Shown here piece by piece: positions 5,498-63,671 of a stretch of DNA of 64,000 nt (positions are counted from its first letter, which is position 1; each line of letters opens with the position of its first letter). The notes under the pieces were generated by a model. The model did not search any database, was not told the DNA's origin, and saw nothing but the letters and a program-made list of their open reading frames with translations. The position numbers and the translations under genes are program-made. The DNA is from an uncultured Actinomycetes bacterium (GTDB taxonomy: Bacteria > Actinomycetota > UBA4738 > HRBIN12), in assembly GCA_963823255.1 (NCBI GenBank), contig CAWGKU010000002.1:52907-116906 (forward strand). Direction: 5' to 3'.

Positions 5498-5964
5498 TCA
5501 GCGCGCCGCGAGCTCCCGCAGGTAGTCGTCGAGGCGGTCCCAGGTCTCGGCGGCACCTTCCTCCATCCCGGTCTCGAGGAGGGCGTCGCGCTGCTCGACC
5601 GTGTCGAACTCCGCCGTGCTGGTGAGCGTCGTCTTGCCGTCGTGCTCCTCGAACTCGTAGGTCTCGGGCCCCGGTTCGCCCTGCATGCCCTCGAACCCGA
5701 ACGTCCACACGAACCGCTCGGGGCGGAGGATCTCGCGGTACTCGCCGAAGAACGCGGGGGTCGAGTACTCCCCCCTTCGGGACCCTGGTGCACGATCCGC
5801 CAGGTGCCGCCCGGGCGGAAGTCGATCTCGCACGTCACGACCTCGTACTTGCGGGGTCCCCACCAGTTGGACATGTGCTCGCACGAGCTGTGCGCATCGA
5901 ACACGAGCTCGCGCGGCGCGTCGAAGACCCGGGTCATCACGATCTTCCGTCCCGGCGTCTCCAT
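5498..5964 (-). CDS. SRPBCC/AHSA1 (activator of Hsp90 ATPase homolog-like) domain protein; one frameshift near 5770 in a G-homopolymer
   Basis: N-terminal part METPGRKIVMTRVFDAPRELVF...WRIVHQGPEGG is in one frame. The C-terminal part EYSTPAFFGEYREILRPERFVWTFGFEGMQGE... is in ORF 5498..5884. Confidence 0.65.
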
Positions 5965-5998
5965 CGTGTGCTTGTAGCTACCGTTCCCGCCCATCGCC

Positions 5999-6361
5999 CT
6001 ACTCCTTCCTCGCTCCGTGTCCTCGGCCTCGTCCCTGGAGCTCGTCCAGGTACTCGTCCAGTCGGTCGTAGCGCTCGTCCCAGAACCGGCGGTACCGGTC
6101 GGTCCACGCGGCGACCTCCTTGAGCGGCGCCGCTCGCAGCCGCGCCGGCCGCCACTGGCGCTCCCTCCCCCGCGAGATGAGCCCCGCGTGCTCGAGCACC
6201 TTGAGGTGCTTCGACACGGCGGGCAGGCTCATCTCGAAGGGTTCCGCGAGCTCCGTGACCGAGGCCTCTCCCTTCGCCAAGCGCGCGAGGATCGCTCGCC
6301 GGGTCGGGTCGGCGAGGGCTCCGAACGTCCGGTCGAGTCGCTCCGCCGTCGTCGTCGTCAT
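5999..6361 (-). CDS. ArsR/SmtB family transcriptional regulator
   Basis: 120 aa with an ArsR-type HTH (LADPTRRAILARLAKGEASVTELAEPFEMSLPAVSKHLKVLEHAGLI). Sits upstream of the SRPBCC/GNAT genes. Confidence 0.8.
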   Translation of the reverse strand: MTTTTAERLDRTFGALADPTRRAILARLAKGEASVTELAEPFEMSLPAVSKHLKVLEHAGLISRGRERQWRPARLRAAPLKEVAAWTDRYRRFWDERYDRLDEYLDELQGRGRGHGARKE

Positions 6362-6525
6362 TCAACCTCCCGGTTACTGAACTGAACGGTAAATTACCTC
6401 GGCGCTCTGCGCCGCGTCAAGTGCCAGATCCGGCACGGATGGCGTTACGGAGCCGCGTGCCGATCGCTGCCGGGCCCTGGGGTCTCCGGTGCGAGGTCAA
6501 GCAGGTGGCGAAGCGCTGATCCGGT

Positions 6526-7146
6526 TCACGCAGGGACTTGCTGGCCGAAGTCTGCGCACTGCGCCGGGTTCTCGATCGTAGGGTCGATGTTGGCCAGACA
6601 GTCCCAGCTCGAGGGGATCGTCGCGGGCGGCGAGCCGATCACGATCGCGATCTCCTCGCCCTTCTTCAGGACGATGGTCGAGATCGGTTGGGTGTACCTC
6701 GTGCCGTCCACGTAGGCCTCGAGCTTCGTGCCGGGGCTGCAGTAACCACCGATGCAGTCGTTCGTCAGCCGCACGCCCCACTCCGTGAACAGCATCGCGA
6801 CGGTGAAGTCCTGCTCCTCCGGCGCCTCGATGTGGATCAGCCCGCTGGTGGCATGCGTGTGGAGCGGCGAGAACAGGCTCTGGTCCTCCCGCCCGATGCT
6901 CGAGGCGACGGGCTCGGACTTCCCGTCCACGAAGATGTCGACGTGCGAGTGGTAGTGCACGGTCAGCGACTCGGTCGACGAGGAGGGCAGCCCCGCGGCG
7001 TCGATGCGCTCCGCGACGTTGTCGGGGTTCGGCCAGGGAGCCGGCCCGGTGTCGAGCGTGAGGTCCGAGCCGCCCGAGTCCGATCCGCCGCAGGCAGCGG
7101 CGAGCAGGGCCAGCGCGAGCACGATGAACGAGGAACGCAGACGCAT
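6526..7146 (-). CDS. Secreted lipoprotein of unknown function
   Basis: Signal peptide with a lipobox (LLAAACGG). 206 aa. Confidence 0.55.
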   Translation of the reverse strand: MRLRSSFIVLALALLAAACGGSDSGGSDLTLDTGPAPWPNPDNVAERIDAAGLPSSSTESLTVHYHSHVDIFVDGKSEPVASSIGREDQSLFSPLHTHATSGLIHIEAPEEQDFTVAMLFTEWGVRLTNDCIGGYCSPGTKLEAYVDGTRYTQPISTIVLKKGEEIAIVIGSPPATIPSSWDCLANIDPTIENPAQCADFGQQVPA

Positions 7147-52586: not shown

Positions 52587-53483
52587 TCAGGTCCCCGCGA
52601 TCGAGGCCCGGGCCTCCGCGATGAGGTCTTTCGCCGTCTCGCGTTCGGTGCCGAAGGGCGCGGCCTCCAGATAGGTCTCGAACGCCGAGATCGCGTCCTC
52701 CGGCCGATCGAGCCCGCGCAACAGGATCACGCCCCGGAAGAACAGCGCCTCCGGGTAGCGCGGATCGGTCGAGAGCGCTCGGTCGACCGAGCGGAGCGCC
52801 TCCTCCGCGCGCCCGTTCTGATACAGGATGATCCCGACGTGCGCGAGCGCCTCGGCGTCGTCCGGGTCGAGCTCGAGCGCCACCGCATACTCCGACAGCG
52901 ACCGCTCGACCATCCCGGCGTCCAGGTAGCGATGCGCCAGATCCAACCGAGCCGCCAGGTCGTCCGGGTGATCCTTCACGCGCCGTTCGAAGAACGCCAG
53001 CGGGTCGTCGGACGCCTGCGGCGTCGACGCCTGGAGCTGGGGTTCGGCATCGCGCGCGAGCGACGCGATCACCACCGCGAGGACGGTCCCGCCGATCAGC
53101 ACCGCGACGGCCCACGGCGGGACGCGGCGGGGTTCGGTCGTGTTCGTTCGGACGGTCGGGGTCGGGGCGTCGTCGAGCGCGACCGCCGTGGCCACACTCC
53201 CCGCCGGCGCGGCGTCGCGACGGTCCAGCGCGCGGAGCACGCGCGCCATGCGGCCCTCGGTCTGTTCGCGGAGCCGGACGTAGTCGGGTTCGTCGAGCGC
53301 ACCCGACGCGTGCGCCTCCTCGAGGTCGGCGAGCGATCGCAGAAGCGCCTCGCGACGGTCGTCGAGCGGGTCGGCGAGCGGCTCGACCGGCGCGGGCGCT
53401 TCGCGGAGGTAGCCGGCGATCACGCCGACGCCCGCGACGAGCGCGAGCCCCGCGACCGCGAACGAGATCGCGATCGGGTTCAC
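52587..53483 (-). CDS. ccmI: Cytochrome c-type biogenesis protein CcmI/CycH-like (TM + TPR repeats)
   Basis: N-terminal TM and a TPR-like C-terminus. Its GTG overlaps the ccmH stop (GTGA). Confidence 0.55.
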   Translation of the reverse strand: MNPIAISFAVAGLALVAGVGVIAGYLREAPAPVEPLADPLDDRREALLRSLADLEEAHASGALDEPDYVRLREQTEGRMARVLRALDRRDAAPAGSVATAVALDDAPTPTVRTNTTEPRRVPPWAVAVLIGGTVLAVVIASLARDAEPQLQASTPQASDDPLAFFERRVKDHPDDLAARLDLAHRYLDAGMVERSLSEYAVALELDPDDAEALAHVGIILYQNGRAEEALRSVDRALSTDPRYPEALFFRGVILLRGLDRPEDAISAFETYLEAAPFGTERETAKDLIAEARASIAGT

Positions 53484-53956
53484 CCGGGTTCCTCGAGATC
53501 CGCGAGCTCGTGCTCGATCCGCCGGTGCTCGGTCTCGGTCACCTCGCCGGCGGTCCCGGGCGCGCGACGCCGGACGAACACCACCCACAGCGTGACACCC
53601 GCCAGTAGGCCGACGATCGGCACCGCCCACGGTAGGAGGTTCCACCCGTGCCGCCGTGGCGACAGCAGGATCCACTCACCGTAGCGATCGATGAAGAACG
53701 CGCGGATCTGGTCGGGGGTCCGGCCGGCGCGGAGCTGGGTCTCGATCTCGGAGCGCATCTCGCCCGCGAGCTTCGACGGGGAGTCGGCGACCGAGAGGTT
53801 CAGGCACACCGGACACCGCAACCCCGCGCCGATCTCGTGCACGCGTTCGTTGAGCGTCCGGGTCGGGTCCGAACCGCCCGACGCGAACAGAGTGGCGAGC
53901 CCGACGACCGCGATCGCCGCGGCGAGCACCACGAACGAGCGCGTCCGCCCGCTCAC
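53480..53956 (-). CDS. ccmH: Cytochrome c-type biogenesis protein CcmH/CycL
   Basis: LRCPVCLNLS motif (CxxC) and a C-terminal TM. Its GTG overlaps the ccmG stop. Confidence 0.7.
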   Translation of the reverse strand: MSGRTRSFVVLAAAIAVVGLATLFASGGSDPTRTLNERVHEIGAGLRCPVCLNLSVADSPSKLAGEMRSEIETQLRAGRTPDQIRAFFIDRYGEWILLSPRRHGWNLLPWAVPIVGLLAGVTLWVVFVRRRAPGTAGEVTETEHRRIEHELADLEEPG

Positions 53957-54558
53957 TCGACGTTCCCGGCCCGGAGCGCTCCCTCGATCTCGTCGGTGAG
54001 CCACTCGTAGGTGACGGCCCCGGTCGTCTTGGCCGCGATCGTCCCGTCCGGCGCGATCACGAAGGTCTCGGGGACCCCGAACACCCCGTACGCGATCGCC
54101 GTGCGCGAGCCGGGGTCGTCGGCGAGCGGCCAGTCACCCTTCAGCTCCTCGCGGAACGCCAACGCCGCCTCCTTCGTGTCCTCGAATGAGACGCCGAGGA
54201 CGACCACGCCCCGCTCCCGGTACCGGCCCCACGCGGCCGCGAGCGCGTCGTGCTCCTCGCGGCACGGCACGCACCACGACGCCCAGAAGTTCACGACGAC
54301 CACCTGACCGTGGAGGTCACCGAGATCGATCGTGTCACCAGCGTCGATCCTCGGCAGCGAGAACGTCGGCGCGGGCTGACCGATCAGCTCGCTCGGGAGC
54401 GCCCGCGGGTCGCGCCCGAGTCCGGATGCGAGTAGGAGCGCGAACAGCACCAGCGGCGCGAGGACGATCGCGACGGTCCGCCACCGCGGCCGCGAACGCA
54501 CGCCGCCTTCCGGCTCGGCAGGCCCGTCCTTCTCGTCCTCGTCGACACCGACGCTCAC
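53953..54558 (-). CDS. ccmG: Thiol:disulfide interchange protein CcmG/DsbE
   Basis: Thioredoxin-like motif VVVVNFWASWCVPCREE. Confidence 0.8.
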   Translation of the reverse strand: MSVGVDEDEKDGPAEPEGGVRSRPRWRTVAIVLAPLVLFALLLASGLGRDPRALPSELIGQPAPTFSLPRIDAGDTIDLGDLHGQVVVVNFWASWCVPCREEHDALAAAWGRYRERGVVVLGVSFEDTKEAALAFREELKGDWPLADDPGSRTAIAYGVFGVPETFVIAPDGTIAAKTTGAVTYEWLTDEIEGALRAGNVE

Positions 54559-56572
54559 ACCGTCACCTCCTCGCGACGCTCGGCGAGGGGTTCGGGCCCG
54601 CGGGGGCTCGCGGCACGCGGCCGGGACGGCCAGGCCGCCAGGATGCCGCCGAGCGCCATCACCGCGCCGCCGAACCACAGCAGCCCGATCCCCGGGTTCG
54701 CGAAGAACCGGAACGAGGCCCTCGTGCCGTTCTCCACCGTGACGAGGGACGCGTACAGGTCGAGCATGCCGTTGAAGGGCGTGCCGAACCGGATCGACGG
54801 CGTGCCGATCGGCTCGGAGGCCGCCGGGTACAGGTTCAGGGACGGCTGGAGCCGGACGATCTCCCGCCCGGTCTCGGGGTCGAGGACGGTGAGCTCGGCG
54901 ACCAGGACCCGCCGCTGGGGCTCCTCGCGGCTCGTGAGCCGGTCGAAGCGCAGGTCGTACCCCTGCACGTGCACGGTCTCGCCTTGGGCGATCGTCACCT
55001 CAGAGGAACGGTCCGAGAGCGCGGCCCAGGACACACCGACGACCGCGACGATCAGGCCGAGGTGCACGACGAGCCCGCCATAGAGCCGGCGGTTCCTCGA
55101 CACCGCCGCCCGGATCGCGGCGCCCACCGAGATCGCGTGCGCGCGACGTTGCGCCTGGACGCCGCGGACCATCTCGGCGACCGTCGCCGTGGCGACGAAC
55201 GCCGCCAGCGCCGAACACGATCACCGCCACCACCCCGGCCCCGGTCAGCGCCAGGATGGCCGCGGTCGCCGCGGCGGCCCACATCGGGACCTGCAGCCGG
55301 CGGAGGACGGCGGACGCTGAGGCCGCCCGCCAGGGCAGGAGCGGCCCGATCCCCATCAGGAACAGGAGCAGCAGTGCGACCGGCGCCGTGTTGCGGTTGA
55401 AGAACGGCGAGCCGACCGAGACCTTGCCGCCGGTGACGGCTTCGGCGAGCAGCGGGTAGATCGTGCCGATCAGCACCGTGAACGTGAGCACCAGCAACAG
55501 GACGTTGTTGCCGAGGAACACGCTCTCGCGCGACAACGGCGTGTCGAACGTCGCCTCGGCGCGGAGCGATTCGCGGCGCCACGGCGATCAACCCGAACCC
55601 CCCGAGCAGCACGAGGGTGAGGAACGCGAGGTACAGCGGCCCCACGATCGATTCGGCGAACGTGTGGACCGACGCCAGGATGCTTCCCCGCGTCAGGAAC
55701 GTCCCGAGGACGGTCAGCGCGAACGTCCCGACGATCAGGGACAGGTTCCAGACCTTCAGCATCCCGCGGCGCTCCTGCACCAATACCGAGTGCAGGAAGG
55801 CGGTCCCCAGCAGCCACGGCAGCAGCGCGACGTTCTCGACCGGGTCCCACGCCCAGTACCCGCCCCAGCCGAGGACGCTGTAGGACCACAGCGCGCCTAG
55901 CGTCAGGCCGATCGTGAGGAAGATCCAGGCCGAGATCGTCCACCGACGCGTGATCCGCATCCACGCGTCGCTCACCCGCCCCGTGATCAACGCGGCGATC
56001 GCGAACGCGAACGGCACCGTGAACCCGATGAACCCGAGGTACAGGAACGGCGGGTGCGCCGCCATCAACGGATGGTTCTGCAGCAGCGGGAGCGGACCGC
56101 GCCCGTCGGGCGGAGCGGTGGCGAGCGTCGCGAACGGCGTCGTGGGCCCCAGGACCAGGACCAGGTAGAACGCCGAGATGCCGAACATCACCGCGAGCGC
56201 CCACGGGAAGGTCTCGGGGCGGCGGCGGCGGAACCGGAAGGCGACGGCTGCCAGGTAGCCGCCGAGGACCAGGTTCCACAGCAGCAACGAGCCCTCGTCG
56301 GCGGACCAGAGCGCCAGCATCTTGAAGAACGTGGGGGTCGCGCGGCTGGAGTTCGATGCGACGTAGCGCAGGGAGAAGTCGTTCGCGAGCAGCGCTGCGA
56401 GCATCGCGAGGTTCGCGACGACGACGAGCGCGAACAGCGAGTACGCCGCCGTGCGCGCGCTCTCGACCACGCGCGGGCGGCCGGTCCGCGCGCCGACGAT
56501 CGCGGCCGTCGCCCCGTACACCGCGAGGGCGAGCGCCAGCGCGAGCGACAGCGTGCCGACCATCGCCGGCAT
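54555..56572 (-). CDS. ccmF: Cytochrome c-type biogenesis protein CcmF (heme lyase); two frameshifts (near 55530 and 55190)
   Basis: WWD motif WGGYWAWDPVEN. The protein is spread over ORFs 55052..56572, 55000..55536 and 54555..55172. Confidence 0.8.
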
Positions 56573-56979
56573 CAGGTGACCTCGTCGGGTGGCGGCGTCT
56601 CGCCGGGCGGCGGCGGGCGGTACTCCTCACCGTGCTTGACGAGCATGTTGTCCGAGTGGAACGCGCCGTCCGTCCCATAGGTGCCCTCGAGCACGACGCC
56701 GGTGCCGCTCTTGAACAGCGCGGGCGTCGAGCCCGTGTGGACCACGGTCATCCTGGTCGTGCCGTCGGTCACGACGAAGTCGACGCCGCCCGACACGTCG
56801 TGCAACGACCCCGGCACGACCTGGCCGCCGAGGCGGAGGCGCTCGTTCGGGGCGGGGTGCTGGTGCAGGAGCTCGGTCGGCGTGACGTAGTACACGAGGT
56901 TGCCGGACAGGGCCTGCGTCCCGACCCAGGCCAGGCTGCCGGTGATCAGCACGATCAGGACGACGACGCGGACGCGCAC
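56572..56979 (-). CDS. ccmE: Cytochrome c-type biogenesis heme chaperone CcmE
   Basis: N-terminal TM and the motif AFHSDNMLVKHGEEYRPP. Confidence 0.75.
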   Translation of the reverse strand: MRVRVVVLIVLITGSLAWVGTQALSGNLVYYVTPTELLHQHPAPNERLRLGGQVVPGSLHDVSGGVDFVVTDGTTRMTVVHTGSTPALFKSGTGVVLEGTYGTDGAFHSDNMLVKHGEEYRPPPPGETPPPDEVT

Positions 56980-57149
56980 GGACGCAAGCCTACGAGGGTG
57001 CCTCCGTTTCCGTCGAGGCACGGGAGCGGGGTCCGTGCGGCCCGGTGGCTCGAGCGTCAGCGTCAGGGTTCTGTCAACGAACGCCCTGGTCAGAGACGGA
57101 CAGAACCCTGACGGGGCGCCTCCGAGCGACGCCGCCACCGCTCGAGGGC

Positions 57150-58037
57150 TCAGAGCTCGAACGTCCCCCGCCCGACCACGTGGACGCCTCCCCCGACCCG
57201 GACGCGCCACGCACCGTCCTCCCGGTCGGTCTCGACGAACAGCTCGCTCGGCCGGCCCACCTGCGCGCCCTGGCGGATCAGCACCGAGCCCGGCATGCCG
57301 GCCACGTCGTGTTCGGCCAGGTAGGCGCCGAGCGCACCGGCCGCCGACCCCGTGGCCGGGTCCTCCCCGACGCCGAGTTCCGCATCGAACATCCGCGCGG
57401 TGACGCCCTCCTCGGTGACCGCGAACAGGTACAGATCCTCCCCGCCCGAGGCCGCGACCGCTTCGGCCACGCCCGCGGCGTTGCGGACGGCGCGCCGGAG
57501 GGTCTCGGCGTCGCGGAGCGGCACGATCGTCGGCGGGAGACCGGTCGACACCGTCCGCACGGGCAGACCGGGGTCGAGATCCTCCACCCCCAGACCGATC
57601 GCGCGAGCGATCAGCTCACGATCCTCGAACACCGGCCCGAACTCGGGTGGGAGCTGCGTCATCCACGCGGTGCCGGCCTCGAGATCCACCTCGACCGGGA
57701 TCTCGCCGGCGGCCACGACCTGTGTCGCGGGCGAGCTCACGCGCCCCTCGCTCACCAACACGAATGCGGTCCCGAGCGTCGGGTGCCCCGCGAACGGGAG
57801 CTCCGCCGCCGGCGTGAAGATCCGCATCGCGTACCGGTCACCGTCACTCTCGGTCACGAACGTCGTCTCCGAGAACCCGATCTCCTTCGCGAGCGCCTGC
57901 ATCGTCCCGTCGTCCAGGTCGACGGGCTCCGGGACGACGCAGAGCTGGTTCCCGGCCAGCGGTCGCGGCGCGAACACGTCGACGAGCCGGAAGGGGACCT
58001 TCACGCCGCGCACTGTAGCGGCTGCACGCGAGGTCAC
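57150..58037 (-). CDS. PhzF family isomerase (DapF-like fold)
   Basis: 295 aa with PhzF-like motifs FRLVDVFAPRPLAGNQLCVV and GHPTLGTAFVL. Confidence 0.75.
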   Translation of the reverse strand: MTSRAAATVRGVKVPFRLVDVFAPRPLAGNQLCVVPEPVDLDDGTMQALAKEIGFSETTFVTESDGDRYAMRIFTPAAELPFAGHPTLGTAFVLVSEGRVSSPATQVVAAGEIPVEVDLEAGTAWMTQLPPEFGPVFEDRELIARAIGLGVEDLDPGLPVRTVSTGLPPTIVPLRDAETLRRAVRNAAGVAEAVAASGGEDLYLFAVTEEGVTARMFDAELGVGEDPATGSAAGALGAYLAEHDVAGMPGSVLIRQGAQVGRPSELFVETDREDGAWRVRVGGGVHVVGRGTFEL

Positions 58038-58054: not shown

Positions 58055-58723
58055 TTGCTACCGTTGGTCATGACCGAACGGACCTTCCGCGACGGGGCTC
58101 GAGCCGTGGGGCCGCTCGCGGTGGCCGTGGCGGGGTTCGGCGTCTCGTTCGGCGTGATCGCGCGGGCGGTCGGGTTCGGGTGGCTCGCGCCGATCGTGAT
58201 GTCGGCGACGACGTTCGCGGGCTCGGCGCAGTTCGCGTCGGTCTCGGTGCTCCGCGACGGGGGGACGATCGCCGCGGCGGTGACGGCGGCGCTGCTCCTG
58301 AACGCGCGGTACGCGCCGATCGGGATCTCGGTGGCGCCCTACCTGACCGGGTCCCTGTGGTCGAGGCTCGTGCACGCGCAGCTCGTCGTCGACGAGTCAT
58401 GGGCGATCGCCGCCGAGGGCGAGGGCCGGTTCTCCCGGAGCATGCTGCTCGGCGCCGGGGTCGTCCTGTACGTGTCGTGGGTCGTCGGCACGGCGATCGG
58501 CGCGCTCGTCGGCTCGGGGATCGGCGACCCGGCCACGTTCGGGCTCGACGCGGCGTTCGCGGCGCTGTTCCTCGGGCTGCTGGTCCCGCTCGCGCGCGAC
58601 CGCCGTCACGTCGCCGCGGCGCTGCTCGGCGCGGCGATCGCGCTGGCGCTCACGCCGTTCGCGCCGGCCGGTGTGCCGATCATCGCGGCCGGCGCCGCCT
58701 GCCTCATCGGGCTGAAGCGATGA
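58055..58723 (+). CDS. azlC: AzlC family branched-chain amino acid exporter subunit
   Basis: Polytopic AzlC-like protein. Confidence 0.75.
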   Translation: MLPLVMTERTFRDGARAVGPLAVAVAGFGVSFGVIARAVGFGWLAPIVMSATTFAGSAQFASVSVLRDGGTIAAAVTAALLLNARYAPIGISVAPYLTGSLWSRLVHAQLVVDESWAIAAEGEGRFSRSMLLGAGVVLYVSWVVGTAIGALVGSGIGDPATFGLDAAFAALFLGLLVPLARDRRHVAAALLGAAIALALTPFAPAGVPIIAAGAACLIGLKR

Positions 58724-59028
58724 GCCAGACCTGGCTCGTCGTCACGCTGGTCGGTGCCGGCACGATCGCGATCAAGGCGATCGGTCCCGTGCTGCTCGGG
58801 GGCCGCCCGCTGCCCGAAGGTCTCTCGCGCGTGATCGAGCTCCTCGCGCCCGCGCTGCTCGGCGCGCTGGTCGCGGTGCAGACGTTCGGGAGCGGCCAGG
58901 CGCTCGCCGTCGACGAACGCGTGCTCGGCGTCGCGGTCGCCGCGATCGCGATCTGGCGGAAGGCGCCGCTGCTCCTCGTCGTGATCCTGGCGACGGTGAC
59001 GACGGCGCTCGCCCGGGCGCTCCTGTGA
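58720..59028 (+). CDS. azlD: AzlD family branched-chain amino acid transport protein
   Basis: 102-aa membrane protein. Its ATG overlaps the azlC stop. Confidence 0.7.
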   Translation: MSQTWLVVTLVGAGTIAIKAIGPVLLGGRPLPEGLSRVIELLAPALLGALVAVQTFGSGQALAVDERVLGVAVAAIAIWRKAPLLLVVILATVTTALARALL

Positions 59029-59050: not shown

Positions 59051-59121
<71 letters not shown>

Positions 59122-59126
59122 CGCCT

Positions 59127-59339
59127 TCAGCCCCTCGGAGCCTTCGGTTCGCGCTCGAGCCGGAGCGCCAAGGCCGGGCAGGCGTTCAACGTCCGTCGGG
59201 CCATTGGGAGCAGCTCGGCGGGCACGGTCGCGTCGTCCAGGATCGGGTAGCCCCAGTCGTCGAGCCTGATCATCTCGGGGAGCAGTTCCGCGCAGATCCC
59301 GTGGCCGGTGCACGCGATCGGGTCGAGGCGCAGACGCAT
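59127..59339 (-). CDS. Small ferredoxin (single Fe-S cluster, Fer4_13-like)
   Basis: 70 aa with CTGHGICAELLPE...CP cysteine spacing. Confidence 0.6.
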   Translation of the reverse strand: MRLRLDPIACTGHGICAELLPEMIRLDDWGYPILDDATVPAELLPMARRTLNACPALALRLEREPKAPRG

Positions 59340-60560
59340 CTATGCCGCCTTCCCGGGTTCGGGCACAGGGAGGATGCGTGGCTCGCGTGACCCCGCGCAT
59401 CGGCGCCCATGCAGATGGGCGCGGACGTCGGCGCCGAACACCTCGAGGGCGCTCTGCAGGAACCGGACCGCCCCGTCCGGCAGACCGCACGCGCCTCGAC
59501 CGCGGACGTCGGCGGCCCAACGGTTCAACCGGCCGAACGTCGCGTCGCCACCGCGTCCTGTCACGACCTGTTCGGCAGCTCCGGCGATCGCCGCGAGGCC
59601 GTGCACGCAGGGGCCGCACTGGCCCGCCGTCTGTCCGGCGAGCCAACGCAGAACGTTGGCCGTCTCGGTCCAACCGCACGCGTCTTCGGGAACGACCGCG
59701 ATCACCCCCGCTCCGACGATGCCTCCGACCGCCGCGAGACCGCTCGGTTGCAGCGGAACGGTAGCGGCGGTCTCGGCCGCGAGCCAGGTCCCCGAGTAGC
59801 CGCCGACCAGGACGCCTCCCACTCCTCGTGGCGCGCCCCCGGCTCCGCGCATCACGTCGCCGATCTTCGCGCCGACCTCGATCTCGTACACGCCTGGATG
59901 CGCGACGCCACCCGACACCGTGACGAGCATCGAGCCAGGCATCTCATCGGGCCCGATCGATCGGAACCACGTCGGTCCGAAGGCATTGATCAGGGCGAGA
60001 TGTCCGAGCGTCTCGACGTTCTGGATCAAGGTGGGTCGACCCCGGACCCCGCGAACGAACGGCCGCGGGCCGGACGTCGGGATCGCCGGACCACCGTTCA
60101 GCAGGTGGACGAGGGAACGCTCCTCCCCCGCCACGTAGCCGGTCGGGATCGGCACGACGCGGACGCGCACGCCTCGCCGAGCGACCGCCGAACGCTCCCG
60201 CACGGCCGCCTCGATCGAGCGCCGGGCACGCGGCGCGACGGCGTCCACACCGACGATCACCTCATCGGCTCCGACGGCAGCGGCGGCGAGCTCCGCGCCG
60301 TCGAGCACGAGGTGCGGGCCCAACGTCATCAGGACCCTGTCCTTCTCGCTCGCCGGCTCCCCTTCGCTCCCGTTCACGACGACGAACGGGACGCCGCTTC
60401 CCACCGCCGACCGCGCGCATCTTGACGGCGGTCGGGAACGCCGCGCCGCCACGGCCCCGTAGACCAGCTGCGTCGATCGCGTCGATCAGTTCGGCGCGGG
60501 AGCGCTCGATGCGGCGTCGGAGGAGGCGGGAACGCGGCCCGGTGTTCGCGCAGGCTCATC
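59340..60560 (-). CDS. NuoF-like (complex I 51-kDa subunit family) NADH/FMN/Fe-S protein; two frameshifts near its 5' end
   Basis: VVVNGSEGEPASEKDR, GGYSGTWL and AGQCGPCVHG motifs lie in ORF 59340..60452. The SLREHRAAF and AGLRGRGGAAFPTAVKMRAV segments are found in the two other frames between 60400 and 60560. Confidence 0.65.
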
Positions 60561-60630
60561 GGGACGGCCCGGTCGAGATGCGGACTCAACCGTGCGACGT
60601 TGGCGCTCGGATCCCGTGTCGCGGAGCCGC

Positions 60631-61729
60631 TCACTGCGCGACCTCGCTGCTCGAGACGGCGCCGATGAGGAGCCGGCCCTGCACCTGCCCGGAGGCCGAG
60701 ATCGACATCTGGACCGCGATGTCGATCACGTCGCCGTAGCCGTCCGAGAGTCGCGCCCGGAGCGTGCCTTCGTCCAGCCCCGTGACCTCGCCCCGGTAGG
60801 TGGCGGCTCCCTGCGGCGGGATCAGCCGGATGGTGCCCGAGCGTACCGAGAAGCCCTCGGTCTCCTGTTCCCCGTCGAGCAGGATGCTGAGCGAGAGCGG
60901 GATCTGGTCCGGTGGTCTGCACCGACGTGGACAGCGTCGCGGCTTCGCCCGTCGAGGCGCGGTCGAGGTTCGCCGAGCCGGAGAAGTCTGCTTGCTGAGG
61001 AAGGACGATCGCGGCGACGGATGGTGCGGACGCGGTCGCGGCGGCGGCGGCCAGCAGATCGGTCGGCGTGCCGGCACGCACCGCCCACCCTCCTCGCAGC
61101 GGACCGGTCACCATCCACACGGCGAGCGCCGGCGGCATCAGGACGGCGCCCACGACGAGCAGGACGCGTGCGGGCTCCCACCCATCCCACCCGCGAGCGA
61201 TCCGCCACACGGCCGCGGCCAGCACGGCGCCGACCGAGACGCCGACCAACCCCAACATCCAGGGTGTACTCGTGTCGCTACCGACACCGGCACCGTGGAG
61301 GACCGCGACCACCCAGGTTCCATAGGTCGTCCAGTGGATCGCCCGCCAGATCGGGTAGCCGAGCCGAGCTCGGAGCAGGCTCGTGATGGCGATCGCCAGG
61401 AGGAGATCGAACGCCAACGCTCCGAACCCCAGCCAGATCGGACGGTACGCCGAGCCGAAGGGCACGACGGCGTCGACCCATCGGATCGGCGCGAACCCGT
61501 CGATCACGACCGTCGCGATATGGATCGCGATGAACACCAGGACGAGGAGCGAGAGATCGCGATGGACGCGCTGGACCACGAACCGAGGGGTGCGCTCGGG
61601 AGACCAACGGGCGACGTTCGCGACACCCAGCACGACGATCGCCGTCAACAGCAGGAGCGAAACCGCTCCGCTTCCCCGCGTCAGGTACCAGAGCGCTCGT
61701 GACTCGATCGAGGCGGCCAACAGGCTCAC
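60631..61729 (-). CDS. Ferric-reductase-like transmembrane domain protein (MsrQ/YedZ-like b-heme membrane module) with C-terminal extracytoplasmic domain; one frameshift near 60900
   Basis: Six TM helices with conserved His residues (HRDLSLLVLVFIAIHIA, AIHWTTYGTWVVAVLHG). Its GTG at 61729 overlaps the apbE stop (GTGA). The C-terminal domain continues in ORF 60631..61077. Confidence 0.55.
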
Positions 61730-62643
61730 GCCGCCACCGCGTCTGGCCAGCCGCACAGGCGAACGATCCGGCCGTCGGCGCGCACGAGCCGGGCCGGGAG
61801 CCCCAGCGCTCGGATCCATCCGACGGCGCGCTCCCCGAGCACGATCGCCGCGGTCGTCGCCGTGTTCGCATCGACGCACCGAGCCGCCGTCACGGAGACG
61901 GTCCGCCAGACCTCCGCCGCGGGCCGGCCGGTCATCGGGTCGACGACGTGGTGCACCGGCATGCCGCCCCGCGTCCAGCGCCGAACCGTGGTGCTCGACG
62001 TGGCGAGCCCGCCGCTCGAGATGCCCACGACCTCGCCGTTGCCGATCGCATCGCCGTGATCGTCCGCGATCGACACCGTCCACCCTCCCGCCGGGGCGTC
62101 TCCGAACGCCGCCAGATCGCCCCCGAGAGAGACGAGGACGCCGCCGCCGGTCACCGCGACCGCCCTCGCAGCTGCGTGGTCGGCCGCCAACGCCTTCGCC
62201 GTCGCACCGAGATCGAGCAGGACGCCTGCCGGTAGCCGGATCGCGCACCGCTCCGGATCCGTCTCGACGACCCGCCACCCCGGGGCTGGGCGAGAGCTGA
62301 TCCGCGGGCCGGTCGGTGCGATCCGCGCGAAGTCCCGGTCGTAGCCCATCCGTCGCACGGCGTCGCCCACCGTCGGGTCGACGGCACCGTCCGTCGCTCG
62401 CGCGGCACCGAGGGCCACCTCGACGGCTTCGAAGAGTGCCGGGCTCACCGTCGTCCACCGGTCCGGCGAGCCGTGGAGCCGAGCGAGGTCGGAGTCAGTG
62501 CGGAAGCGACTGCACGCCCGGTCGATCTGGTCGATCTCGTCGCGAACGACAGTCACCGCTTCGACCAGTCGCCCGACATCCGAGGCGATCACGGTCGCGG
62601 TCGTCCCGAGCGCAGGGAACGTCGTAACGCCCGGCGATGCCAT
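61726..62643 (-). CDS. apbE: ApbE family FAD:protein FMN transferase
   Basis: 305 aa with VLLDLGATAKALAAD and VVGISSGGLATSSTT motifs. Confidence 0.8.
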   Translation of the reverse strand: MASPGVTTFPALGTTATVIASDVGRLVEAVTVVRDEIDQIDRACSRFRTDSDLARLHGSPDRWTTVSPALFEAVEVALGAARATDGAVDPTVGDAVRRMGYDRDFARIAPTGPRISSRPAPGWRVVETDPERCAIRLPAGVLLDLGATAKALAADHAAARAVAVTGGGVLVSLGGDLAAFGDAPAGGWTVSIADDHGDAIGNGEVVGISSGGLATSSTTVRRWTRGGMPVHHVVDPMTGRPAAEVWRTVSVTAARCVDANTATTAAIVLGERAVGWIRALGLPARLVRADGRIVRLCGWPDAVAA

Positions 62644-62993
62644 CAGGATCCCCCTGATCCCACCTGTCCCGAGCCGACACCCGGAACGGGGACCTGAGGC
62701 GGCGGGGCCGGCAGGCCGCCCGTACCGTCGTTGGGAGGCGGCAGCGCGACGAGCGGAGCCGGAGATGACGGCGAACCATGGCTCGCGTGATCCGCGCTCT
62801 TGTTGCGCTGTGCCCCCGGGAGCGCGGCGGCCGCGATCGCCGAGAAGGCTCCGGTCAGTGCGACCGAGGCTGCGACGGCTACCCGCGTGACGAAGGAAGC
62901 GGACCTCAGCCCGCGGCTGCGGGCGAGACGATCGCGCGACCGCTCACGCTCGCCACGAGCGCGGGCGCGGCCGGGAAGCGATGGCTGTGGCAA
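62643..62993 (-). CDS. Small hypothetical secreted/membrane protein, Pro-rich C-terminus
   Basis: Hydrophobic segment VAVAASVALTGAFSAIAAAAL. May be a shadow ORF. Confidence 0.3.
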   Translation of the reverse strand: MPQPSLPGRARARGERERSRDRLARSRGLRSASFVTRVAVAASVALTGAFSAIAAAALPGAQRNKSADHASHGSPSSPAPLVALPPPNDGTGGLPAPPPQVPVPGVGSGQVGSGGS

Positions 62994-63131: not shown

Positions 63132-63671
63132 CTACCCGGACTTCTGGCCCGTGCGGAGGTCCATCCAGCTCGTCTCGATCGCGGCGTAGCGGGCCCACGC
63201 CGCGGCCCATCCGTCGTCGTTGCGAGGGAAGGTCTCGACCGGCTGCTGCGGCGTGTTCCGGTCCCAGATCCCGAAATGATCCGGCGCGTACCCGAGCAGA
63301 TAGCGCGAACCCGTGTGCGTGAACTCGATCTTCGCCTCCGGAGCGGGTGCTGCGGCCGCCGGTGCCGCCTCGGCGGCCGGTTGCGCGGTCGCGGGCTCGG
63401 GAGCTGCCGCGGCCGGTGCCTGCGCCGGGGCGGGTTCGACCTCCGGCTGGACGGCCGGGACCGGCGCCATCATCGTGGCCTGCGGCGGCGCCACAGCCTT
63501 CTTCTCCTCGACCTTGGGCTCGACCTTCGGCTCCTCGGCCTTGGACGCCTCGGCCATCGTGGGCGGCGTCACCGCCGCGGCGGGGACCTCGTCGACGAGC
63601 CACGATCCGCACCAGCGGCACTTGATCGCCGCGTCCTTGATCTCCTCGGCGCAGTACGGACAGGTCTTCAT
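63132..63671 (-). CDS. Zinc-ribbon domain protein with Ala/Pro-rich linker
   Basis: N-terminal CPYCAEEIKDAAIKCRWCG, an AP-rich spacer, and a conserved-looking C-terminal domain. Confidence 0.6.
   Translation of the reverse strand: MKTCPYCAEEIKDAAIKCRWCGSWLVDEVPAAAVTPPTMAEASKAEEPKVEPKVEEKKAVAPPQATMMAPVPAVQPEVEPAPAQAPAAAAPEPATAQPAAEAAPAAAAPAPEAKIEFTHTGSRYLLGYAPDHFGIWDRNTPQQPVETFPRNDDGWAAAWARYAAIETSWMDLRTGQKSG

Follow-up and report, generated by a model that had tools for sequence, protein, structure and literature searches.

Introduction

Covalent flavinylation by ApbE, a flavin adenine dinucleotide (FAD):protein flavin mononucleotide (FMN) transferase, underlies Nqr, Rnf, NosR and Gram-positive extracellular electron transfer. 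Among the predicted systems that use it, the closest to the locus described here are the MsrQ-like flavinylation-associated clusters, which were defined mostly in Actinobacteria by the presence of apbE within five genes of a PF01794 six-transmembrane cytochrome; 31 of them carry a NuoF-like protein (PF10589) as the proposed NAD(P)H input (Meheust et al. 2021, eLife, PMC8238504). Clusters in that study typically contain an FMN_bind gene and were kept only if ApbE or a protein with FMN_bind, DUF2271 or DUF3570 had a signal peptide; about 4% of the genomes with apbE were without a known substrate. Here we analyse an operon on the minus strand (62993..59127) of a 64,000-nucleotide stretch of DNA, referred to as the window, from an uncultured Actinomycetes bacterium (assembly GCA_963823255.1, contig CAWGKU010000002.1, positions 52,907 to 116,906). 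It consists of five packed open reading frames (ORFs) encoding a small membrane-tethered protein, ApbE, a ferric-reductase-domain membrane protein (MP), a NuoF-like protein and a ferredoxin. The operon is a conserved actinobacterial module with a distinct architecture, and it has a strong candidate for the flavinylated component, which we propose to be the C-terminal tail of the small protein.

As in the clusters of Meheust et al., apbE adjoins the gene of a PF01794 six-transmembrane cytochrome, here with a GTGA overlap. Unlike them, the operon has no FMN_bind, DUF2271 or DUF3570 gene and no signal peptide or lipobox on its ApbE; in addition, its cytochrome bears a barrel domain and it encodes a small protein ending in SGG[ST]. 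With neither a signal peptide nor an FMN_bind gene, this type of cluster would have been removed by the filters of the 2021 pipeline. An earlier reading of the window (the original prediction) had proposed that apbE and the genes of MP, the NuoF-like protein and the ferredoxin form a transmembrane electron-transfer module. That four-gene idea is not new, because NuoF-like clusters were noted by Meheust et al. Nor is the pairing with a NuoF-like donor as unusual as the original prediction held: besides the 31 reported clusters, it recurs across many species of Actinomycetota. In the literature on SGGS or SGGT in connection with ApbE, and on this combination of genes, we found nothing beyond the 2021 study, and we found no description of the small SGG[ST] protein or of the barrel of MP. 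The small ORF family appears to be a new component of an already predicted type of module.

Results

Five translationally coupled genes

Coordinates without a prefix are positions in the window; L001, L002 and so on denote related loci or contigs. Based on Pfam matches, the four genes of the original prediction lie on the minus strand with the positions and identities given there: apbE (61726..62643; 305 aa; PF02424), MP (60631..61729; GTG at 61729, TGA at 60631; 365 aa after removal of one base near 60915), the gene of the NuoF-like NADH/FMN/[4Fe-4S] protein (59340..60634; GTG at 60634; 430 aa after removal of one base each at 60503 and 60384) and that of a single-cluster ferredoxin (59127..59339; 70 aa). 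The two GTGA overlaps reported for these genes were also found, at 61729-61726 (apbE/MP) and at 60634-60631 (MP/NuoF-like). Upstream, the small ORF (62643..62993, minus strand; 116 aa with a TTG start) has one base in common with the start of apbE (TGATG); downstream, the ATG of the ferredoxin gene comes immediately after the TAG of the NuoF-like gene. Because of this overlap and this abutment, the coupled unit comprises five genes, not four. We have high confidence in this parts list. The observation behind the original prediction is thus confirmed, and its interpretation is supported in part.

On the other side of the ferredoxin gene, a tRNA-Gly gene (anticodon TCC; 59051..59122, plus strand) converges on the ferredoxin stop codon with a 4-nt gap and bounds the unit. 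No terminator-like structure was found between the two. Scans for promoters and terminators and a scan with Rfam gave nothing relevant, and no FMN riboswitch was found.

The small protein ends in a conserved SGG[ST] motif

In the window, the small protein has a basic N-terminus, one transmembrane helix (~62820..62882) and a 60-aa tail rich in Ala, Pro, Ser, Thr and Gly that ends in SGGS, encoded just before the stop codon (62646..62657, minus strand). It has no match in Pfam or NCBIfam. Its family shares the N-terminal consensus ARDxGLRR-S-xTRW and a disordered tail with a median of 63 residues, about 70% of them Ala, Pro, Ser, Thr or Gly. The tail holds a semi-conserved LxPPxQxP, and the protein ends with V-x-S-G-G-S followed by the stop codon. 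A Tat signal at the N-terminus, which might allow export of a tail already carrying its cofactor, was considered and rejected: of the presumed twin arginines, the first varies in the family, and the window has GLRS.

The C-terminal motif stood out in every comparison of the family. When ORFs of at least 60 aa were collected in six frames from 83 sequences (82 loci and the window region), SGGS was the C-terminal tetrapeptide in 74 cases, the next one occurring 33 times. A profile search of 1.84 billion representative proteins returned 1,986 members of the family at E<=1e-3, and in almost all of the top matches the motif was at the extreme C-terminus. All 120 proteins listed in the first family search end in SGGS, SGGT, SGSS or SSSS; the last residue is Ser in 77 and Thr in 43, and SGGT accounts for 43 of the 120. 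The second search added 145 representatives, of which 141 end in SG[GAS][ST]. Among these 141 motif-bearing proteins, Ser at position -4 and Gly at -3 (the last residue being -1) are invariant, position -2 is Gly in 136, Ala in 3 and Ser in 2, and the last residue is Ser in 136 and Thr in 5. Canonical SGAS is therefore present, as a minor variant of the ending. Every third codon position of the motif varies across loci while the amino acids are fixed, which indicates that selection acts on the protein motif.

ApbE targets the sequence D-x-x-[S/T]-G-A-[S/T] and places FMN on its last residue; in mutagenesis of the motif, an Asp-to-Ala change had a minor effect, and changes of Gly or Ala lowered flavinylation to about 50% but did not abolish it (PMC12052999). 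ApbE also flavinylates an unstructured C-terminal extension of the Lactococcus protein FMN_red (Huang et al. 2024, PMC11334425), and, according to the account of the Flavin-tag (Tong et al. 2021) given in PMC12052999, it modifies seven-residue tags best at a protein terminus. The tail of the small protein resembles both cases in carrying a short ApbE motif on a terminal segment. In FMN_red this segment is likewise unstructured, and its flavinylated Ser/Thr delivers FMN to a binding site. The FMN_red motif acts in cis on a folded flavoprotein and the Flavin-tag, as that account describes it, is artificial, whereas here the modified position would be the last residue of a separate, membrane-anchored, otherwise disordered protein, and the motif reads SGG[ST] instead of SGA[ST].

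The absence of an [ST]GA[ST] motif from MP, remarked on in the original prediction, was borne out, since none is conserved there. More broadly, no conserved [ST]G[AGS][ST] was found in MP, the NuoF-like protein, the ferredoxin or ApbE, the best site being present in 11 of 109 sequences. We rejected an alternative flavinylation site in these products on this ground; a conserved RAGTP, which follows the sixth transmembrane helix of MP, does not fit the motif. The SGG[ST] end is the sole conserved ApbE-like motif among the operon products. The suggestion that the small ORF may encode the acceptor gains strong support from its conserved C-terminal motif and from its position upstream of apbE-MP or of MP.

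MP is a NOX/FRE-like di-heme cytochrome with a C-terminal barrel

MP matches PF01794 (Ferric_reduct), scoring 36.4-37.2 bits where the cut-off is 28. Its homologues, more than 1,800 proteins with a length of about 365 aa, share one common architecture. In a genome collection with one genome per species, at least 592 stretches encode a relative of MP; the carriers are mostly uncultured Actinomycetota (Solirubrobacterales, Acidimicrobiales) and also include Catenulispora and Actinocrinis, with Catenulispora subtropica (L027) and Actinocrinis puniceicyclus (L045) as cultured examples. Four histidines are invariant in 109 homologues and are the predicted heme ligands: H56 (61564..61562), H70 (61522..61520), H132 (61336..61334) and H145 (61297..61295, all on the minus strand). 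They lie on two helices with the spacings H-x13-H and H-x12-H, which is the bis-heme pattern of ferric reductase domains.

The original prediction described MP as a six-transmembrane, bis-heme protein of the MsrQ/YedZ type. The six helices and the four heme-ligating histidines were found, and the assignment to the MsrQ/YedZ type was replaced by one to the NOX/FRE pattern. MsrQ and STEAP have one His ligand fewer and hold one heme and a flavin (PMC12525009); since all four histidines are present in MP, the protein is NOX/FRE-like and not MsrQ-like. In NCBIfam, no MsrQ match was found for MP, and neither the operon nor any of the related loci examined contains a molybdoenzyme gene (the msrP partner).

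Helices h2-h5 form the core of the ferric reductase domain family (PMC12525009). The PF01794 match, which covers h2-h5, begins at the first of the six helices of MP, so that the family helix h1 is absent; at the other end, MP has an extra sixth helix. An AlphaFold2 model of MP (pLDDT, the predicted local distance difference test, 80) matched SpNOX, the transmembrane domain of CsNOX5 and STEAP1/2 over the transmembrane region. The net charges of loops 1, 3 and 5 are +2.4, +3.7 and +2.1, and those of loops 2 and 4 are +0.3 and -0.2. Because the former are basic and the latter are not, the short N-terminus and the C-terminal barrel of MP are predicted to be extracytoplasmic.

Compared to the NOX/FRE proteins (SpNOX, 8qq7; CsNOX5 transmembrane domain, 5o0t), MP has the same h2-h5 core and two bis-His b hemes, and the system would share NAD(P)H as its ultimate donor. 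It differs in that the dehydrogenase is not fused (MP showed no FAD_binding or NAD_binding match) and is replaced by a separate NuoF-like protein and ferredoxin, in lacking h1, and in the extra helix, which is predicted to place a barrel outside. The two-component, NOX-like MsrPQ-Fre system is similar in another respect: a membrane protein with a ferric reductase domain is reduced in trans by a cytoplasmic NAD(P)H flavoprotein and hands electrons to a periplasmic partner (PMC12525009). Unlike MP, MsrQ has one heme plus FMN and one His fewer, and its partner MsrP is a molybdoenzyme, whereas no msrP adjoins MP.

The extra soluble domain that had been noticed at the C-terminus of MP exists and is a beta-barrel (60634..60997, minus strand, including the extra base at 60915). 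Modelled alone (pLDDT 92.6), it forms an eight-stranded antiparallel barrel with a predicted fold of the AOC/streptavidin-like, small-molecule-binding type. An FMN_bind or FAD-binding domain, which the original prediction proposed to look for at this place, was rejected: Pfam gave no match for the barrel, even with the threshold relaxed to E<=10, and the fold is a different one. When the barrel alone was used to search for homologues, nothing but fragments of the MP family came back. A gene of the PhzF family adjoins the operon, and the barrel resembles a phenazine-binding barrel; this may be a coincidence.

The NuoF-like protein and the ferredoxin

The NuoF-like protein matches Complex1_51K, SLBB and NADH_4Fe-4S in Pfam. 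It has the fold, the FMN/NADH motifs and the single Fe-S cluster region of NuoF/Nqo1, the 51-kDa subunit of complex I; in the alignment with these proteins it keeps the FMN/NADH loops GLRGRGGAAFPT, NGSEGEPAS-KD and NVET. Four cysteines available for a [4Fe-4S] cluster are conserved (C325, C345, C348 and C387), but, unlike in NuoF, the CxxCxxC motif lacks its first Cys, whose place is taken by one located 20 residues upstream. The protein scored 196.7 bits with the NuoF equivalog model TIGR01959, for which the cut-off is 558.65. Its neighbours are MP and the ferredoxin, and no linked NuoE or NuoG gene was found. Being far below the equivalog cut-off and without a NuoE/NuoG partner, it is a paralogue and not a complex I subunit.

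Near the C-terminus of the NuoF-like protein, H413 and C418 are conserved (59340..59420, minus strand). They are not conserved in the two canonical NuoF/Nqo1 sequences aligned. They could form a metal or docking site.

The ferredoxin matches Fer4_15 (E=8.4e-11). Its motif, C10-x2-H13-G-x-C16...C53-P, has Cys and His residues that are invariant in 59 homologues, an arrangement that we take to be typical of actinomycete single-cluster [3Fe-4S] ferredoxins.

ApbE

The product of apbE belongs to the FAD:protein FMN transferase family. It scored 164.2 bits with PF02424 (cut-off 25.6; E=5.7e-48) and matched the structures of TM1553 (E=1e-25) and Salmonella ApbE (7e-22). The alignment with solved structures of mature ApbE proteins begins at residue 11 of the query, and the motifs DPTVG, DLGATAK, ATS and HHVVDPxTG are retained. 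In 49 homologues from the clusters, the FAD, Mg and catalytic motifs (DPTxG, GxAKG/A, ATS, HxxDPxTG) are at least 80-95% conserved. The frame upstream of the apbE start is non-coding in relatives, where another frame holds the conserved small protein.

The gene order is conserved across Actinomycetota

Synteny was counted in related loci from different species, 71 of which had both flanks available. The full order small ORF-ApbE-MP-NuoF-Fdx was found in 35 of these 71, and a further 13 have small ORF-MP-NuoF-Fdx. The small gene lies directly upstream of apbE-MP, or of MP when apbE is absent, in 72 of 79 loci; most of the exceptions carry variant endings, such as TSGS, SSGS or TASS. The NuoF-like gene directly follows MP in 57 of 73 loci. 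Together with the GTGA overlap, this places the NuoF-like gene and the ferredoxin gene in the same conserved unit as MP. Three look-ups that started from the small protein all led to genes adjoining Ferric_reduct-NuoF-Fdx. Clearly, the linkage of the operon genes is far beyond chance, and the unit foreseen by the original prediction is conserved across actinobacterial relatives.

The small gene and MP also occur without apbE, a NuoF-like gene or a ferredoxin gene (11/71 loci). Lone pairs of an SGGS gene and MP are found in L012, L014, L034, L053 and L072 (around 5600..7100 in each), and one metagenome-assembled genome has two copies of the pair (L036, L065). These lone pairs and the two-copy genome indicate that the two-gene pair is the conserved core and has paralogues. 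In L020, L021, L037 and L051, the small gene and MP are separated by ~2.3-3 kb of other genes from apbE, the NuoF-like gene and the ferredoxin gene. In these four loci apbE stands directly before the NuoF-like gene, and there is no SGGS ORF upstream of apbE.

In several relatives, a two-component system (an OmpR-type regulator and a HisKA kinase) adjoins the small gene or MP (L084, 2931..4945; L085, 2930..4935; L034, 7960..10073); the window has none. This suggests dedicated regulation in some lineages.

Discussion

A proposed split NOX-like chain with a flavinylated tail

The best explanation of the operon, to which we give an even chance, is a split NOX-like transmembrane electron-transfer chain with a flavinylated tail. 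We infer the following order of carriers and direction of electron flow, and hold this electron path with moderate confidence. In the cytoplasm, the NuoF-like flavoprotein would oxidise NAD(P)H via FMN and one Fe-S cluster. Electrons would then reach the inner heme of MP, the probable carrier being the operon's own single-cluster ferredoxin, and the two bis-His b hemes of MP would conduct them across the membrane. On the exterior, the sixth helix of MP would present the ligand-binding beta-barrel. A single-pass partner, encoded by the first gene, would contribute a long disordered tail ending in V-x-S-G-G-S/T-COOH, and the adjacent ApbE may attach FMN to the Ser or Thr at its end. Tethered in this way and perhaps docked in the barrel, the flavin would serve as the outer electron acceptor or as a shuttle, and Fe(III), O2 or a small redox molecule are candidates for the terminal acceptor.

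The tail is proposed as the ApbE target because its end matches the target sequence except for an Ala-to-Gly change and a missing Asp, because it is the sole conserved motif of its kind in the operon, and because ApbE accepts terminal tags and an unstructured C-terminal extension. Judged from the sequences, the chances that the tail would be flavinylated by the cognate ApbE are about even.

Several observations weigh against flavinylation of an outward-facing tail. The motif lacks the canonical Ala (Gly in 136/141) and a conserved Asp six residues upstream; the positions that precede it are V-V-V or P-P. The tail is predicted to be outside from the flanks of the transmembrane helix (N-flank +3.25, C-flank +1.92), and this moderate charge bias is the only basis for the orientation of the small protein. 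No signal peptide, lipobox or hydrophobic N-terminal extension of ApbE was found in the 49 loci examined. Cytoplasmic ApbE proteins exist, for example for the Klebsiella fumarate reductase (PMC12052999), and the missing signal peptide therefore does not exclude membership of the family; the extracytoplasmic flavinylation step of the original prediction, however, is not straightforward. An ApbE without a signal peptide is in conflict with a barrel and a tail that are predicted to be outside. Possibly the tail is flavinylated in the cytoplasm and then translocated while unfolded, possibly it is cytoplasmic and serves the inner heme, or possibly ApbE acts on a different target. Finally, 27 of the 71 loci with both flanks have the small gene and MP but no apbE immediately before MP, and the tail may therefore have a role independent of ApbE.

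Taken one step further, the small protein may represent a new class of ApbE substrate: a membrane-anchored, disordered 'swinging arm' that would carry FMN on the last Ser/Thr of SGG[S/T]-COOH, be loaded in the cytoplasm by an ApbE without a signal peptide before export, dock in the barrel of the di-heme cytochrome and pass electrons that stem from NADH in the cytoplasm on to acceptors outside the cell, and that would be widespread in soil Actinomycetota. We put this forward tentatively, as a possibility of lower probability than the chain itself. If it holds, FMN loading of the tail in the cytoplasm would remove the need for FAD export. An ApbE without a signal peptide would mean either that flavinylation precedes export or that the flavin is active at the cytoplasmic side of the membrane.

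Flavinylation of the tail, if it takes place, would define a minimal, domain-free class of ApbE substrates, in effect a Flavin-tag that occurs in nature and is not engineered. Orphan apbE genes in Actinomycetota would then have an explanation, and soil bacteria would have a widespread route from NADH to the cell exterior in which a NuoF-like module takes the place of the fused dehydrogenase of NOX. If the tail is not flavinylated, the finding shrinks to another member of a predicted family of clusters.

Alternative explanations

The small protein might instead be a structural or regulatory subunit of the cytochrome, as p22phox is to NOX, with a C-terminus that binds the barrel free of flavin; the target of ApbE would then be encoded by an unlinked gene (such as FMN_bind, NqrC/RnfG or DUF2271). 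This is the most serious rival, though in our view a rather unlikely one. It would account for the loci in which the small gene and MP stand alone, for the finding that no more than 44 of 79 loci have apbE directly before MP, for an ending that differs from canonical SGAT and for an ApbE without a signal peptide. Against it, where apbE is directly upstream of MP it is flanked by the small gene on one side and MP on the other, and in most cases the stop and start codons overlap. Moreover, the last residue of the motif is only Ser or Thr and position -2 only Gly, Ala or Ser, SGAS included, as predicted for an ApbE site; the operon has no other conserved motif of this kind, and no FMN_bind domain was found in its products.

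A purely cytoplasmic ApbE that acts on something other than the tail is improbable. In such a case the enzyme might convert FAD to FMN as a supply for the NuoF-like protein, or flavinylate a cytoplasmic protein, and the motif of the tail would be unrelated. The lack of a signal peptide in any relative agrees with this idea, and the Klebsiella fumarate reductase system (PMC12052999) is a precedent. There is no conserved [ST]G[AGS][ST] in the NuoF-like protein, in the ferredoxin or in the loops of MP to receive the flavin, however, and in most loci the gene order ties apbE to the small gene and the cytochrome rather than to the NuoF-like gene. Canonical NuoF, furthermore, binds its FMN non-covalently.

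The third alternative concerns the integrity of the genes in this genome. Frameshifts had been suspected in the operon from the start, and they proved to be three single-base insertions relative to L001, at 60915 in MP and at 60503 and 60384 in the NuoF-like gene. L001 is a metagenomic contig 97% identical over 7 kb, in which all genes are intact (305, 365, 430 and 70 aa); with the insertions removed, MP (365 aa) and the NuoF-like protein (430 aa) have the lengths found there. Were the three frameshifts real, the operon would be a decaying pseudogene cluster. Consistent with decay, the frame-breaking insertions relative to L001 are confined to MP and the NuoF-like gene, the genes of ApbE, the ferredoxin, AzlCD and PhzF being clean, and there are no long homopolymers at the insertion sites. 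The ratios of nonsynonymous to synonymous substitution rates (dN/dS) against L001, however, are 0.10 for MP and 0.12 for the NuoF-like gene, the two that are broken, and 0.19 for ApbE. Assemblies of close relatives show other indels at the same site of MP (P0007) or a compensating pair (P0091), ccmF elsewhere in the window is split by a frameshift as well, and many of the related contigs, among them L002, whose NuoF-like gene is broken, bear 'contig_N' names, a naming taken as typical of long-read assemblies. Because of the split ccmF, the differing indels of relatives and these names, the three frameshifts are probably assembly errors rather than true mutations, which leaves the pseudogene explanation with a slim chance.

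Apart from these insertions and the indels given below, the differences from L001 over the 7 kb are substitutions. The other indels are a pair at 60270/60273 that compensate each other, one of 6 nt at 62965..62973 that keeps the frame, at the N-terminus of the small ORF, and a cluster of single-base indels at 57038..57116 between the stop of the phzF-like gene and the start region of ccmE. An apparent ApbE-MP fusion in P0066 was rejected as a frameshift artefact.

The idea that SGGS is conserved as a nucleotide by-product, such as the Shine-Dalgarno footprint or start-stop overlap of apbE, or through a programmed frameshift or readthrough that anchors ApbE, was rejected as very nearly negligible: G-rich motif codons do lie 1-15 nt before the apbE start, and a transmembrane anchor, a linker and ApbE would make a sensible exported enzyme, but all four third codon positions vary freely under fixed amino acids, the motif is equally conserved where MP and not apbE follows, and the small ORF and apbE are in frame 0, 1 or 2 depending on the locus, with spacers of up to ~20 nt, so that no single recoding mechanism fits.

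Neighbouring genes

Beyond the tRNA-Gly gene, azlC/azlD (58055..59028, plus strand) and the PhzF-family gene (57150..58037, minus strand) adjoin the operon, an arrangement that is shared by the closest relatives (L001, L002) alone. Just beyond them lies a System I cytochrome c maturation cluster (53480..57210, minus strand), with ccmE (56572..57210), ccmF, split by its frameshift into overlapping ORFs (55052..56572 and 54555..55172), the gene of the thioredoxin-like CcmG (53953..54678) and ccmH (53480..54004). Just upstream of the operon, a gene on the minus strand (63132..63671) that is conserved in L001 and L002 encodes a 179-aa protein with an N-terminal zinc ribbon, a linker rich in Ala, Pro and Glu, and a C-terminal domain.

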